IMG/VR virus record: IMGVR_UViG_3300029267_001718 | Span: 1-64,000 of that record | Source of the DNA: a virus | DNA: 64,000 nt | Strand: one strand, 5' to 3' | Part shown: positions 25,534 through 63,245 of the stretch, one piece after another | Numbering within the stretch: position 1 is the stretch's first letter | Layout: the number at the start of each line of letters is the position of its first letter | Made by a program: the position numbers and the translations under genes | Notes under the pieces: generated by a model | Told to the model about the DNA's origin: nothing | The model's input: only the letters and a program-made list of their open reading frames with translations | The model's database searches: none

Positions 25534-25534
25534 C

Positions 25535-26230
25535 ATGGGAAACTACGTCACTGTCGCTGAAGTCCGAGCATTCAAAATCGCGGGCGAAGTGATCGATTTG
25601 TCTGCCTACACGGATGACGAAGTGGAGGAACACATCGGTCTTTCGGAATCGTTCGTCGAGGCGATCTGCAATGATATCTTCTACGCGAAAGATGAGACGA
25701 ATCGTTTCGATGGCAACGGTTTGACGCAGCTACATTTTCAACCGTTGGTTGTCTACCCATTGATTTCGATTGTCAGCTGCAAGGATATTGATATCGATGG
25801 GGCGGAACTGGAAGAGTATGTGGAGGGGGATGACTTTGTTCGATACGATCATTACATTCAGACTGCTCTCGCATTCCCCGAAGATCGCCCGAGACGTGGT
25901 GTTTTTCGCGGCGGCGTTTGGCCAAAAGGCCAGAAAAATATTGTGGTTGAAGGACGTTGGGGACGTGAAGAAACCCCTCCGGAAATCAAGCGGGCAGTCA
26001 TGCTACTGACGTTGGAATCGTTGCAACCGGGATCGACGAAGCAAGTTCCGGTCGACGCACAGCAAATCATTTGGCCTGACTTCACTGTCACGTTCAAAGG
26101 TACGGCGGAAAGCATTGGAATGGAGACTGGTTTTCCTCAAGTTGATCGGTTACTCTACAACTACGTCAACTGGGTGGATCTATTCCAAGTGGTATCCGAC
26201 AAACGTGGAGAACATGACCGTGATTTATAG
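25535..26230 (+). CDS. Head-tail adaptor-like protein
   Basis: YVTVAEVR start, NIVVEGRWG..ETPPEIKRAV. Confidence 0.7.
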   Translation: MGNYVTVAEVRAFKIAGEVIDLSAYTDDEVEEHIGLSESFVEAICNDIFYAKDETNRFDGNGLTQLHFQPLVVYPLISIVSCKDIDIDGAELEEYVEGDDFVRYDHYIQTALAFPEDRPRRGVFRGGVWPKGQKNIVVEGRWGREETPPEIKRAVMLLTLESLQPGSTKQVPVDAQQIIWPDFTVTFKGTAESIGMETGFPQVDRLLYNYVNWVDLFQVVSDKRGEHDRDL

Positions 26231-58470: not shown

Positions 58471-59463
58471 ATGAGCGAAACTGAAACATCAACGGAACTG
58501 ATTCTCGGCAGCGGCGTAGCCGGGGACATTTGGGAGGGAACTGCTTCGACGTTCGTTCCCATGCTCAAGCAGGACATGCCGATTGCCGAACGCAAGGAAG
58601 CGGTGCGAAACATCCTGCACGCAAGCGGCGAGATCGACGACAAATTGAATCTTGTCGCGGGCGAAATGCTTTACGAGGTTCACGCCAACGAGTATTGGAA
58701 AGACTGGACGATCACAGTCGACGGCGAGGATCGTCCGTACTCGTCTTTCGAGGAATACTGCGAAGTCGAACTGGCGATGAAAAAACGCAAGGCTTACACG
58801 CTGCGGCAAGTCTACGAGCGTTTCTGTGTCGAACTCGACATTCCTCTCGAAACCCTACGCGGGCTGCAGTGGACGAAGGCACGGGCGATCCTCCCGGTGG
58901 TCACTGATGAGAACTGGGAAGAACTTCTCGGCAAAATCAAAACGCTGTCGAAATCCGAAGTCGAAAAACTGGTCAAGTCGATGAAGGCGGACGACGATGA
59001 CGATGACGGCGAGCCCGATGAGCTAGCCCGCATCGCCTTCAAACTCCACCCCGAACAATTCGAAGTGGTCACGTCGGCACTGAAGGTTGCCGAGTCGATG
59101 AGCACGTCTGAAGTCCCGGGAAATCAACTCCATTTGATCTGTATGGATTTTATCTCGGGTGCAGCCGGAACGGGCTTAACAGGAGCCCTGGCGAAGCTGG
59201 ACGTGGTTGTCAAAAACATCGAACGAGCGTTTGGTGTCGAACTCGAAATCAAGGGAGTCGACGAAGACCGCTATTCGGCGTTGAAGGGTGCGGCGGACGC
59301 GGAACCCATTGATACCACATCGACGGACGCCGAGCCCGACGAGGACGATACAGACGTTGTGGGCGATCTGGATGACGTGGACGACGAGGAACCGTCTGAC
59401 ACGGATCTGGAAAGCGTACTCGCCGACGCGGAAGCGGCTGAAGCCGCTTTGGGGGACGACTGA
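58471..59463 (+). CDS. Helical putative DNA-binding protein with acidic tail
   Basis: GEMLYEV...YSSFEEYCE.EL..KKRKAY; AGGAG RBS. Confidence 0.6.
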   Translation: MSETETSTELILGSGVAGDIWEGTASTFVPMLKQDMPIAERKEAVRNILHASGEIDDKLNLVAGEMLYEVHANEYWKDWTITVDGEDRPYSSFEEYCEVELAMKKRKAYTLRQVYERFCVELDIPLETLRGLQWTKARAILPVVTDENWEELLGKIKTLSKSEVEKLVKSMKADDDDDDGEPDELARIAFKLHPEQFEVVTSALKVAESMSTSEVPGNQLHLICMDFISGAAGTGLTGALAKLDVVVKNIERAFGVELEIKGVDEDRYSALKGAADAEPIDTTSTDAEPDEDDTDVVGDLDDVDDEEPSDTDLESVLADAEAAEAALGDD

Positions 59464-59468
59464 TCTAT

Positions 59469-59622
59469 GGTTGCGAAGATGCCATTGCCGAGGACGTGCA
59501 GTATTGGCGGTCGGGCGGTCCCCGAGCGTCGGGTAACGCTGACACGTTGGGCTAAGTGGAAGGGTGGTTTCCCGGGGCGGAGTGCACGCCAAACCGGGGA
59601 GGTAGGCTGGATCTTCGCAACC
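59469..59622 (+). ncRNA. Putative 154-nt structured RNA
   Basis: 12-bp perfect closing stem, internal hairpins, followed by TCTTTTT. Confidence 0.5.
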
Positions 59623-59635
59623 TCTTTTTCTACTT

Positions 59636-59932
59636 GCGAGGGTAGCTCAATTGGCTGTTCACGGAGGGCGGCGGTATTAGGGACGCTGAACCCGTTTGCC
59701 TCAAGGCTCACTGGTTATCATAGCCGATTCGTGAACGACGCGGTGCGGACTTCGGTAGAGAACGTTGATACTGCCACTCCGCCCAAGCCCAATGAAAGTC
59801 CACGTGGTGACTGCGGGCGAGGGAGCCGTTGTGTGAGCACGGATTCGGAGCATACGAAACGGAAGAATCCCTCTTCCGTATTGCGTTACTGCTACGGAAA
59901 CGAGGTTGGAGGTTCGAGTCCTCCCCCTCGCA
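59636..59932 (+). ncRNA. tRNA-like RNA with ~245-nt structured insert
   Basis: Acceptor GCGAGGG / CCCTCGC-A, TAGCTCAATTGG D-arm start, perfect T arm GGAGG-TTCGAGT-CCTCC. Confidence 0.7.
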
Positions 59933-59979
59933 CTTTATTTTGAATTGAAACGCTTCACCATAGAACCGGAGTAGGAAAA

Positions 59980-60687
59980 ATGGCGATTGGCAGTGTATCG
60001 GATCTGCGGAAATACCTGGACGAGCGGGCACGTAAAACGAAGAAATTGCTCGATGAAATCTCTACGGCTCAATTGAAGCGAGCCAAAAGTTTCTGGACAT
60101 TGATCTGGAAGCTCACTGATCTTTGGGACCACATTCAATCGGGTTATCGACACGAGGGCAAACAGGGGCAAGAACTTCGAATGCTCACATACACTGCCTA
60201 TCTCCGACAACTGAAGGGACGCGTCAACGAACCCGATGCTATGTGGGGGCGTCAGGTTTACAAGCGTTGGGTGTCGGACGCGGATCGGGATACGATCCTT
60301 GAAGGGTGTACCCCCGAAGCGTTGCTGCTTGTGGAATCCAAACGTCCTGTGTGTCATCGGCGGAAGATCATCACGAGGTTGCGTGCTCACGTCAAACGTG
60401 GAGCAACGTTGGTGACGGAAGACACGGTGCGACGTTGGTGGCAAGGATACATCGACGGCGAAGCGTTGGCGGAAACTCCCCCGCACACAATCGGGGAGGA
60501 CGATCCGGATGTGTGTGCGTTCAAAATTCGAAAGCGTCGTAGTTCGGTTCTGAACGAATTGGAAATTGCGGAGCGTGTGGTAGAATTGGCGAAGAAGCAT
60601 CGGGCGTTGATCGCTTCGCTATTCGAACTCTACGGCGAGGATTGGCGAACGGCGAAATCAGTGAAGGCACCCGGGGACACAAAATGA
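59980..60687 (+). CDS. Hypothetical basic protein
   Basis: CCGGAG RBS; 235-aa ORF. Confidence 0.6.
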   Translation: MAIGSVSDLRKYLDERARKTKKLLDEISTAQLKRAKSFWTLIWKLTDLWDHIQSGYRHEGKQGQELRMLTYTAYLRQLKGRVNEPDAMWGRQVYKRWVSDADRDTILEGCTPEALLLVESKRPVCHRRKIITRLRAHVKRGATLVTEDTVRRWWQGYIDGEALAETPPHTIGEDDPDVCAFKIRKRRSSVLNELEIAERVVELAKKHRALIASLFELYGEDWRTAKSVKAPGDTK

Positions 60688-60983
60688 AATACACAGTCCG
60701 CGAGAATGCTGACCACACGCACACGTTGCTTCGATATCACAAGGAAGTGCCGCGATTGATTAACAACGCGGAGCTAGAATTCTGGTTTGAAATCGAACGA
60801 CTTCGTGAAGCACTGCAAGCGATTGCGGATCGTGGCGATCCACCCCCAGGACCGCGAGCGGCGGTGTGTGTAACGACCACAACTCTGGCGACGATGGCGA
60901 AGCAAGCGTTGGCGGAAACAACGTTGTCGGTTCCAGACACAGATGAACGCGAAATTTCTGACGTTCGAATGGAAGGATTTTGA
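60684..60983 (+). CDS. Hypothetical protein
   Basis: ATGA overlap; EIERLREALQAIA. Confidence 0.55.
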   Translation: MKYTVRENADHTHTLLRYHKEVPRLINNAELEFWFEIERLREALQAIADRGDPPPGPRAAVCVTTTTLATMAKQALAETTLSVPDTDEREISDVRMEGF

Positions 60984-61500
60984 AATGCGGAAGGGATTGT
61001 TCGAAGAACTGACTGCGATCATGCCGAATACCGTCTATGTGTTTCAGGAACACCCGGGCGGATACGTTTGTGACAAACTCACGAAGCCCGACGAGGGCAC
61101 AGAGTTCGAACGAAAACGATACCTCATCACGGGCGAAACGCAGTGCACTTGTTTGGGGTGGATGAAGTTTCGCGACTGCAAACATCTGAAGATGCTCCGA
61201 CGTGACATGAGTTGGGTCAAAAATCCCCCTCCGTTCTCTTTTGCAGTGGAGGAATTCGAACGACTCTTTGTTGAATTGCAGAAGCGATTCACATCGTTCG
61301 CCGAACGGGATCTGCCCGACTTTCTTAGCGTGTTGGAAGACGCACATCCGGACACTGTTCGGGTGATGGAGTTGTGTTTTCCAGAGTCGGAATATCCGCC
61401 GAACATGGTGCTCGCGGTCTCCATAGCTAAGTGGTCCGAGGGTTACGATATGGCGATTGCGTGGGAAAAAATTTCGGCGGATTCTGAAGCCTCAGAATAA
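60943..61500 (+). CDS. SWIM zinc-finger protein
   Basis: CTCLGWMKFRDCKH. Confidence 0.7.
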   Translation: MNAKFLTFEWKDFEMRKGLFEELTAIMPNTVYVFQEHPGGYVCDKLTKPDEGTEFERKRYLITGETQCTCLGWMKFRDCKHLKMLRRDMSWVKNPPPFSFAVEEFERLFVELQKRFTSFAERDLPDFLSVLEDAHPDTVRVMELCFPESEYPPNMVLAVSIAKWSEGYDMAIAWEKISADSEASE

Positions 61501-61551: not shown

Positions 61552-61592
61552 GCCGATATCGGCTTGATTTCTGAGCGAGGATGTGCGATAAT
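61552..61592 (+). promoter_or_regulatory. Extended -10 promoter preceded by perfect palindrome GCCGATATCGGC
   Basis: Palindrome at 61552-61563, then TTGATT-17 bp-GATAAT with TGn. Confidence 0.65.
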
Positions 61593-61673
61593 TCAATTAT
61601 TGGAAAACGGGAAACGGGAAACAAAACCACCACGGGAAACAAAACCCACCACACCAAACCGGAGGATTTTACG

Positions 61674-63245
61674 ATGGCGAAAACAGACATGGCGAAACCG
61701 ATCTACATTGGGTTCAAACTGGCGGAAAATCAGTACCACATTTTCCACGCGATTAGCTGGAAGGTACGCACCGAATATCGCATCAAACTGGAAGCCGGTA
61801 AGCCGACTTGCGGTTGTGCGTTGTTCCGTTTCGATGGCGGTTGCGATCACGCCGCATTAGTTGAACGTGACGCAACGGTTTTCGCGGGAGCGTGGGGCGA
61901 TGACGATCTTGATGTCGACGCGTTTCGCTGGCAAGCCGAAGATCCCTACGCATTCGTTGCGTTTTTCGACAAAGCAGGGGATCGTTTCGGTGTCTTGCGT
62001 CCGAACGTCGGCAACCTCTCGCTGGAGGAAGCCCTGTCGCTGTTGAGCAACGGCACGATTCCAGCGGGGGCGGACACAGACGGCGTTTTGAATCCGAATC
62101 GTCTCTACGCGGAAGCGGTCGAATCGTTCGACAAGGGAATCGACGTTTCGCATCGTGACGTGGTCGAAGCGGGCGAGGGGGCGGATGAACCTGTCGCCAC
62201 TGACACAGCGGACGATGACGCGGACGATTTTGAGGAAGACGTGGTCGACGCTCCTGCGGTCGACACTCCCGCCGAGGAACCGAAACCCGAAACGAAATCG
62301 GAACCCAAACCCAAGGCCAAAGCGGACCTACCGATCTGGCGACGGGTCAAGCGTCCGAATCCGAATCAGTTCTTTGTCGACAAGGATGTGTGGGAACAAC
62401 TACTCTACAGCATGTGCAACGGTGGGAACGTTCTGCTGATCGGCGAGTCGGGATCGGGCAAGTCGGAATTGTGCTACATCGCAACCAAGGCTCTGCATCG
62501 CGAGTTGGCCAAAATTGCCGAAGCGATCACCGATGACAGCGAGCCCAAAAACGTTGAGCCGCTCGATCCGTACAACTGCGGTGCGATGTCGGAACCCAGA
62601 ACGGCACTGATCGGCAACGTCAAACTTCGCGGGGACAAGACCGAATTTGAGCCCGCACGTTTTGCGAAATCGGTGCAGCGTGACGGGGCAGCGATCCTGT
62701 TGGATGAAATCACCCGGGCGGAGCGGGGAGCATTCAACATTCTCTTGCCGTTGTTGGATCGCCAAGGCTACTTGCCGTTGGATGAGGATGAGGGTGGCGG
62801 TGTCGTCAAACGGGGCGAGAAAGTCACGTTTCTCGCTACTGCGAACCTCGGAATGATCTACGGCGGAACGGACGAGTTGGACAAGGCTCTGAAGGATCGT
62901 TTCGACACGGTTATCGCTCTTGACTTCCCACCCGCAGACGCCGAGGCGAAGGTGCTCCTAGGTCGCTGCGAGGGTCTCACGCGAGCGGACGCGGATCGTC
63001 TGGTTGAAATTGCCACCACTCAGCGACGGTTGGCGGTCGACGGCGATTTCGCGGGCGGTGAGCAAATCTCGACTCGGATGCTTCTCAACGCGGGCGAAAA
63101 GATTGGGGCGGGCATGAGCTTCAATGCTGCCTGTCGGTTCTCGATTGCCAACGCGTTCAGCGACATGGGGGGCGAAACCTCGGATCGTGCGAAAATCCAG
63201 CAAATCATCCAAAAGGGTGACGTGGGCGAATCCTCTGGATTCTAG
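61674..63245 (+). CDS. SWIM-like domain plus MoxR/CbbQ-type AAA+ ATPase
   Basis: CGC...CDH; GESGSGKS, LLDEITRA, ATAN..YGGT..LD.AL.DRF, ISTR. Confidence 0.85.
   Translation: MAKTDMAKPIYIGFKLAENQYHIFHAISWKVRTEYRIKLEAGKPTCGCALFRFDGGCDHAALVERDATVFAGAWGDDDLDVDAFRWQAEDPYAFVAFFDKAGDRFGVLRPNVGNLSLEEALSLLSNGTIPAGADTDGVLNPNRLYAEAVESFDKGIDVSHRDVVEAGEGADEPVATDTADDDADDFEEDVVDAPAVDTPAEEPKPETKSEPKPKAKADLPIWRRVKRPNPNQFFVDKDVWEQLLYSMCNGGNVLLIGESGSGKSELCYIATKALHRELAKIAEAITDDSEPKNVEPLDPYNCGAMSEPRTALIGNVKLRGDKTEFEPARFAKSVQRDGAAILLDEITRAERGAFNILLPLLDRQGYLPLDEDEGGGVVKRGEKVTFLATANLGMIYGGTDELDKALKDRFDTVIALDFPPADAEAKVLLGRCEGLTRADADRLVEIATTQRRLAVDGDFAGGEQISTRMLLNAGEKIGAGMSFNAACRFSIANAFSDMGGETSDRAKIQQIIQKGDVGESSGF

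Follow-up and report, generated by a model that had tools for sequence, protein, structure and literature searches.

A tRNA-derived, tRNA-shaped element of 297 nt without an anticodon arm in an IMG/VR phage contig

Phages have long been known to make stable transfer RNA (tRNA)-like RNAs of unknown function, such as species 1 and 2 of T4 and RNA1 and RNA2 of T5/BF23, and in outline these RNAs already describe the kind of molecule considered here. Look-alikes of tRNAs that lack an anticodon recur in phage genomes, escape tRNA finders and have no known function; they might divert tRNA-targeting defences, as decoys, or give processing enzymes a handle. Here, we describe an element of 297 nucleotides (nt) at positions 59636-59932 of a window comprising the first 64 kb of a 79.6-kb phage contig from IMG/VR (IMGVR_UViG_3300029267_001718; estimated completeness 73%). 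The evidence supports a tRNA-shaped and tRNA-derived element, distinct from canonical tRNAs as well as from canonical transfer-messenger RNA (tmRNA). It is a one-off tRNA look-alike and not a demonstrated new class of RNA.

Both ends of the element are those of a tRNA, far beyond chance, and are tRNA-derived. Neither the acceptor and T stems (7 and 5 pairs) nor the T-loop contains a mismatch, and pair 3:70 is G-C. T59643 and A59644 correspond to U8 and A9, and the D arm then starts with GCUCAAUUGG (GCTCAATTGG at 59645-59654). The discriminator A59932 is followed by CTT instead of CCA, within the trailer CUUUAUUUU. A scan of 185,579 species genomes showed that the GCGAGGG/CCCUCGC stem is common to cellular tRNA-Ile(GAU), tRNA-Phe(GAA), tRNA-Ile(UAU), tRNA-Arg and archaeal tRNA-Leu. 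The resemblance to the GAU and GAA types extends past the identical acceptor stem and through U8 and A9 to the start GCUCA.UUGGCU; over 59636-59656, the window agrees with tRNA-Ile(GAU) genes of the same acceptor stem at 20 out of 21 positions. Further inwards, the element shares with bacterial class I tRNAs the GAGCAC that follows the D-loop, the variable-loop motif AGGU(U/C), a canonical T arm and A73. The T arm also matches phage tRNAs and a tRNA-like RNA of Streptomyces BE phages over 33-36 base pairs (bp), with 89-94% identity. An initial annotation, made from the letters alone, had named the 7-bp acceptor stem, U8A9, the D-arm start, the T arm, the discriminator A and the missing CCA. 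Each of these can be read in the sequence, and all of the motifs it listed sit where it had placed them.

The middle of a tRNA is missing. Unlike a bacterial tRNA, which measures 73-74 nt, the element has no anticodon arm: among all hairpins with a 5-bp stem and a 7-nt loop that we scanned, none with U33 and R37 was in place, and the anticodon 3′ strand expected before AGGUU finds no partner after A26. A contiguous D arm (3-4-bp stem, 7-11-nt loop) is absent as well: G18 and G19 are present, and the nearest GAGC with which the stem might close lies 178 nt downstream. ARAGORN called no tRNA or tmRNA gene anywhere in the 79.6-kb contig, and Rfam at gathering thresholds gave zero matches across the window. 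The best sub-threshold Rfam matches were tRNA-Sec (21.5 bits, 59817-59931, expectation value E 0.12) and tRNA (17.4 bits, covering 59891-59932 only), the threshold of the tRNA family RF00005 being 29 bits. Thus, the earlier statement that this is neither a tRNA nor a canonical tmRNA holds, and the ARAGORN and Rfam covariance-model checks called no tRNA, tmRNA, group I intron or Y RNA.

We prefer to describe the interior as two insertions and not, as had been proposed, as one replacement of about 245 nt that removed the 3′ strand of the D stem. This preference follows from the modelled fold, since a candidate for that strand comes after the first insertion (insert A) and is used in the minimum free energy (MFE) structure. 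In this structure (-116.2 kcal/mol for the whole 297 nt), the D stem GCUCA/UGAGC is closed across insert A, which is itself closed by UGGCU (59652-59656) and AGCCG (59824-59828). Where a cellular tRNA-Ile continues with GGCU-AGAGCAC, the window has GGCU, then about 178 nt, then U-GAGCAC (59834-59840). The (U)GAGC at 59834-59838 and the A and C after it match the GAGCAC of cellular tRNA-Ile with the same acceptor stem.

The second insertion, module B, takes the place of the anticodon arm and the variable loop and is the sole significantly structured part of the element's interior; only 2 of 200 shuffled sequences were as stable. It folds into an irregular rod with an 8-bp apical hairpin, ACGGAAGA/UCUUCCGU. 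The initial annotation had seen here a hairpin TTCCGTA (59874)/TACGGAA (59893) in competition with ACGGAAGA (59859). Both exist, and the two-hairpin alternative is about 10 kcal/mol weaker (-13.0 vs -23.3 kcal/mol). The features of the element and of its neighbours are collected in Table 1.

Table 1. Features of the 297-nt element and its surroundings (window coordinates)
Feature	Position	Strand	Basis or measure
Putative 154-nt closed RNA	59469-59622	+	z -2.72
Acceptor stem 5′ strand GCGAGGG	59636-59642	+	7/7 Watson-Crick with 59925-59931
U8, A9, D-stem 5′ strand GCUC, D-loop start AAUUGGC including G18 G19	59643-59655	+	sequence
Insert A, about 178 nt in the variable part of the D-loop after G19-C20-U	59656-59833	+	MFE fold
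Second GCGAGGG, possible alternative acceptor 5′ strand	59817-59823	+	repeat of the word
Candidate D-stem 3′ strand (U)GAGC and A26-like A	59834-59839	+	pairs with GCUC(A) 59645-59649 in the MFE fold
Module B, 69 nt replacing anticodon arm and variable loop	59839-59907	+	z -2.83
T arm GGAGG-UUCGAGU-CCUCC	59908-59924	+	5/5 Watson-Crick, fits UUCRANY loop
Acceptor stem 3′ strand CCCUCGC and discriminator A	59925-59932	+	no CCA encoded
orf235, ORFan gene	59980-60687	+	coding signal

We give about an even chance to the reading in which the element is a gene for a processed, stable, tRNA-derived mimic that does not decode. Such a gene would keep a class I tRNA frame of the Ile/Phe type (acceptor stem, U8, G18-G19, T arm, A73 and probably the D stem), in which two parts are replaced or expanded, namely the D-loop, by about 178 nt, and the anticodon arm with the variable loop, by a 69-nt irregular hairpin. 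The RNA would be transcribed together with the surrounding plus-strand genes. RNase P would then cut at 59635/59636, a step that would also free an upstream 154-nt closed RNA with a U-rich tail, and the trailer after A59932 would be removed by RNase Z or exonucleases before CCA addition. The product would retain the acceptor/T-arm half that RNase P, RNase Z and the CCA-adding enzyme recognise and, having no anticodon, could not read codons. One possible role is that of a decoy or sponge, aimed at host or phage factors with an affinity for the top half or the elbow of tRNAs. Expression, processing and function of the element, as well as any structure of insert A, are what we infer here. If the RNA is expressed and processed, it would show that a large domain can be accommodated in the D-loop of a tRNA frame.

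This mimic is suggested by the flawless acceptor and T arms, by the structured module B, by the 0.5 kb of non-coding DNA that a compact genome has kept here and by the fact that RNAs of this sort recur in phages, both related and unrelated. As for the third point, the gap between genes at 59464-59979 (516 nt) is among the largest in the contig, where gaps have a median of 15 nt. An open frame of 158 codons runs through the whole of it (59467-59943). With codon-usage scores of -0.02 and 0.03, this frame falls short of the genes of the phage, which average 0.29, and its G+C content by codon position (0.53/0.62/0.57) departs from that of the genes (0.58/0.41/0.60). A 158-residue protein was therefore dropped, on the missing codon-usage signal and the second-position value of 0.62 vs 0.41, and the 516-nt stretch is non-coding.

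With regard to recurrence, Streptomyces phage Paradiddles (MF347637.1) carries at about 101071-101204 (L001:1397-1530) an unannotated 134-nt tRNA-like gene that reaches 32.8 bits with the Rfam tRNA model. In this gene, 72 nt replace the anticodon stem-loop; it lies within an unannotated 280-nt gap, with an RNA ligase gene a few genes downstream. The RNA is 98% conserved in six BE-phage genomes, with one compensatory change in an internal hairpin and, in the acceptor stem, changes that preserve pairing, and BLAST matched the T-arm segment in 22 BE-cluster records. Related phages hold tRNA-like RNAs of 74-145 nt at L076:4072-4193, L238:1501-1601, L241 (about 1501-1621) and, on the minus strand, L351 (about 1494-1638 and 1889-1962 in plus-strand coordinates). 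The non-canonical elements of G002 measure 101 nt and about 121 nt; G001 has one of 145 nt and one of 74 nt that is called by no tool, both in a non-coding stretch of about 1.2 kb. ARAGORN called no non-canonical element in the two loci scanned (L076 and L351), and Rfam called some only. The elements of G001 and G002 have no sequence in common with the 297-nt element. Anticodon-less look-alikes of phage tRNAs are a loose functional kind, not a family united by homology, and they are not unique to this phage.

The window element is close in kind to the RNAs of the BE phages, L076 and L238. All are phage-borne, sit at a tRNA-gene site, keep the acceptor stem, the T arm and the nucleotides of the elbow intact, have a folded module in place of the anticodon stem-loop and are missed or miscalled by tRNA finders. 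The others, however, are 100-145 nt long, have an unbroken D arm and score 32.8-36.1 bits, above the Rfam threshold, whereas ours is 297 nt long, bears the insert of about 178 nt in its D-loop and scores 17.4 bits; apart from the T arm, which resembles that of the BE-phage RNA, it shares no sequence with them. The D-loop insertion and the size are what is new about it, and among the look-alikes compared here it is the most elaborate.

Several observations weigh against a functional mimic. To begin with, the element is a single exemplar, as no homologue was found in phages, plasmids, IMG/VR patterns or ten related phage records, and this gives an argument from structural selection no footing. 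BLAST of 50,697 phage records returned only the 33-36-bp T-arm matches in Streptomyces BE-cluster phages, and the plasmid search returned no homologue. An exact 20-mer across the junction found none in IMG/VR. A gapped pattern of the architecture found nothing there beyond arrays of tRNAs and tRNAs whose D arms are intact and which bear long insertions, probably group I introns. A 22-mer of the T arm retrieved from IMG/VR many phage tRNAs and long tRNA-like genes, none with an insert in the D-loop; no long tRNA-like gene drawn from that database had an interrupted D arm. The exact 3′ 25-mer had 0 matches in the 185,579 species genomes. The ten related records gave chance or T-arm matches only, and an 18-nt match in L355 sits within a coding region. 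The "new tRNA-capped ncRNA class" of the initial annotation is therefore unsupported: with one exemplar and no homologue, there is neither conservation nor covariation to show.

Sequencing runs do not add variation either. The identical sequence of this uncultured phage occurs in 9 DNA runs from 7 studies, covering sediment and seawater, and no RNA runs are among those listed as containing the phage stretch. Four DNA runs compared over this stretch had the same sequence, with zero variants and zero joints, and thus offer no variants usable for covariation. No promoter-like or terminator-like site adjoins the element.

Insert A is a further difficulty. The 179 nt that hold it (59652-59830) fold at -64.0 kcal/mol, against -63.1 ± 4.3 kcal/mol for shuffled sequences (z -0.21), and 78 of 200 dinucleotide shuffles fold as well, which means that there is no thermodynamic signal. 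Its pairings are at chance level. Within the 252-nt core, Watson-Crick helices of at least 6 bp number 9, compared with 5.4 ± 2.3 in shuffles (10% of which reach 9), those of at least 7 bp number 3, compared with 1.4, and the longest helix with G-U pairs has 13 bp, whereas shuffles average 10.3 and get to 13 in 6.5% of cases. The individual pairings noted earlier are all present, namely GTTCACG (59657)/CGTGAAC (59730), GGACTT (59747)/AAGTCC (59796) and the cross-pairing GGCGGTATT (59670)/GATACTGCC (59767), the last with 9 bp including 2 G-U. However, as both the helix counts and the fold are at chance level, the "large pseudoknotted core" built from them is unsupported. In addition, G18 and G19 are paired in the MFE fold, which would block formation of the tRNA elbow. 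Finally, the 3′ strand of the D stem is a candidate assignment of 5-6 nt; by our estimate, a 5- to 6-mer of this kind arises by chance in 250 nt with a probability of about 6-20%.

The most serious alternative, clearly less probable than the mimic and still a real possibility, is a relic: a tRNA or tRNA-like gene recently disrupted by illegitimate recombination or by unrelated DNA (insert A), with no function left. In its favour, insert A folds no better than shuffles and matches nothing in BLAST of phages and plasmids or in related phage records. The cassette at 59464-60942 in which the element lies is absent from relatives, and the fact that its gene is an ORFan suggests a recent, lineage-specific acquisition. 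The second GCGAGGG may be another trace, a possible recombination scar, as AGC..GTT..CACGGA comes after it in the order seen at the 5′ end. This repeat had been offered as an alternative acceptor strand. It is present and marginally unexpected (13 copies in 79.6 kb, or 0.047 expected per 290 nt); the fold that uses it is 11 kcal/mol worse (-105.2 vs -116.2 kcal/mol). On the other hand, a relic would have to account for an acceptor stem, a T stem and a T-loop with zero mismatches, which it can ascribe to the recency of the disruption only. It also sits poorly with the significant structure of module B, with the presence of the identical sequence in runs of several sediment and seawater studies and with the compactness of the genome, since genomes with a median gap of 15 nt seldom retain 0.5 kb of dead DNA. 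If the element is a relic, it illustrates how genes of this kind decay.

More doubtful is a functional RNA of two domains, with a new domain in the D-loop, that would form an RNA-protein module together with the 154-nt RNA and the product of orf235. The top half of the tRNA would recruit RNase P, the CCA-adding enzyme or other tRNA-binding proteins, the graft site would be the solvent-exposed variable part of the D-loop, and the module might serve as an anti-defence decoy. It would be the first known tRNA scaffold with a domain in the D-loop. Overall, the element is on present evidence a single, unconserved case of modest weight.

It is unlikely that the element acts only in cis, either as a leader that processes or stabilises the orf235 mRNA (tRNA punctuation) or as an attachment-like site, and not as a trans-acting RNA. 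The 3′ parts of tRNA genes are common attachment sites, and the element ends 47 nt before the start of orf235, with a GGAG/AGGA ribosome-binding site in between. The phage attachment site was nevertheless rejected, because the contig, at 73% completeness, encodes no tyrosine or serine recombinase and no integrase or resolvase. Moreover, the 3′ part of a tRNA is all that such a site needs, and a matching 5′ strand 290 nt away would be superfluous.

In bacteria, tRNA introns are self-splicing group I introns, about 200 nt long or longer, that interrupt the anticodon loop. It is very unlikely that the element is a working tRNA gene with one intervening sequence in the D-loop and a second in the anticodon region, both excised to yield a tRNA that decodes. 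When insert A was deleted in silico, ARAGORN, with introns allowed, did report a tRNA-Thr(CGU) with a 31-nt intron. This model is poor: its D stem has 3 bp, its anticodon stem contains a G.G mismatch, its anticodon is split between positions 35 and 36 and its variable region is an unstructured 21 nt. We rejected it as contrived, given the second intron of 31 nt, the mismatch and the split anticodon that it needs. A group I intron or another ribozyme was rejected as well, on the D-loop position of the insert, on its lack of a fold signal and on the result that no intron or ribozyme family matched 59400-60100 at E<10. The size, about 300 nt with an interruption of 180-250 nt, does resemble tRNA genes with group I introns. 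In those genes, however, the intron occupies the anticodon loop, has a conserved catalytic core and leaves a normal tRNA, whereas the interruption in our element falls in the D-loop and lacks both a core and a fold signal, and there is no anticodon arm left. An intron of the archaeal type was rejected too: no bulge-helix-bulge, which would place a 4-bp helix between 3-nt bulges on opposite strands, flanks the insert, its junctions being loops of 2 nt and 6 nt around a 5-bp helix, the replication genes of the phage are bacterial in type and the contig encodes no RtcB ligase. Of the two relevant statements in the initial annotation, the one that group I core motifs are missing is borne out, and the proposal of a tRNA with an unusual intron is not supported, as no credible anticodon arm results once the insert is taken out.

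Phage tRNA genes can carry group I introns. Three tRNA genes of 280-305 nt (L082:5603-5885, L107:2796-3100 and a 280-nt gene on the minus strand of L190) are interrupted just after the anticodon-stem region, between ...CCUCAAA and GGGGGCGU..., and are probably candidates for phage tRNAs with such introns. A different arrangement was seen in L257 (IMGVR_UViG_3300044712_000786, a 203-kb contig), where a 184-nt tRNA element on the minus strand has intact D and anticodon arms, an anticodon loop CUAGUAA and a variable region with about 100 nt that are rich in A and T. The window element has 27 nt around the T arm in common with it, but the acceptor stem of the L257 element is out of register.

A tmRNA analogue charged with an amino acid other than alanine, which had been among the initial proposals, can be practically dismissed: the tRNA-like ends around a long core, the size near that of small tmRNAs and the lack of an encoded CCA (as in some lineages) recall tmRNA (RF00023 and permuted forms), whereas 3:70 is G-C and not the alanine determinant G3-U70 (as first noted), the D stem is probably present, pseudoknot-like pairings are at chance, ARAGORN calls no tmRNA and no Rfam tmRNA family matches even at E<10. 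Short stop-terminated frames exist in two reading frames, and among them we saw none that resembles known tags or ends in Ala-Ala (the latter as first noted).

YrlA, a bacterial Y RNA, combines a tRNA-like part with another structured module, the tRNA-like part being internal and the RNA ends forming the Ro60-binding stem (Chen et al. 2014, PMC4201824). The window element also joins a tRNA-mimicking module to a second structured module and has a closed-stem RNA next door; in contrast to YrlA, its tRNA-like part is at the RNA ends. A Y RNA/Ro60 or RtcB system was dropped, as neither Ro60 (TROVE) nor RtcB is encoded in the contig (73% complete) and no Rfam Y RNA family matched.

Immediately upstream lies the putative 154-nt RNA, whose two internal arms are closed off by a perfect 12-bp end stem, with a U-rich run after the stem. 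A spacer of 13 nt separates it from the 5′ end of the tRNA-like element, which means that RNase P cleavage of its neighbour would set its 3′ end. Its G+C content is 0.64, compared with 0.53 for the genome, and it matched nothing in Rfam or, by BLAST, in phages. A special pairing between the two RNAs was dropped, since RNAduplex gave -119.3 kcal/mol against -121.9 ± 6.4 kcal/mol for shuffles, and a 10-nt complement between 59575-84 and 59775-84 was dismissed as being at chance level.

For the ORFan downstream, orf235, whose coding signal is clear, searches of 5.8 billion clusters and of 1.84 billion representatives yielded no relative, nor is there one among 15 billion proteins; in Atlas it gave weak leads alone, to helical DUF3102/ParB-HTH-like proteins. 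Recorded contigs that carry exactly this sequence number 6, and the longest measures 101 kb, which suggests that the complete phage is probably about 100 kb. The idea that it is a diverged copy of the upstream gene was dropped (hhalign probability 0.1%).

We compared synteny across 28 loci that encode homologues of the upstream 330-residue protein (phrog_17202). In close relatives, this gene is directly followed by a homologue of orf185 (60943-61500) and then by a MoxR/CbbQ-type ATPase. The cassette of about 1.5 kb, with the two RNAs, orf235 and orf113, is absent from these relatives and is therefore lineage-specific. In distant relatives, the 330-residue gene is directly followed by tRNA-Asn, tRNA-Asp or tRNA-Trp, and at the same site in L076 lies a tRNA (36.1 bits with Rfam) in which 61 nt replace the central anticodon stem-loop. 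Judging by this gene order, the site of the cassette is a tRNA site.

Nearly all genes of the contig lie on the plus strand. They include a GpA-type terminase, portal, capsid, DnaB-like helicase, DnaG-like primase, family A polymerase (PolA) and bacterial RecA, and the bacterial type of RecA, DnaB and PolA means that the host is a bacterium. Gaps of 580-680 nt at contig positions 71125-71803 and 74640-75294 and at window positions 25534-26114 hold no frame that passes a crude coding score; they may be weakly scoring genes or more RNAs. Downstream of the cassette, a MoxR/CbbQ-type AAA+ ATPase (window 61581-63245) is followed by a 799-residue protein with a weak VWA domain (contig 63349-65748). 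This CobS/CobT-like pair (phrog_249) is kept downstream of the cassette position in relatives.

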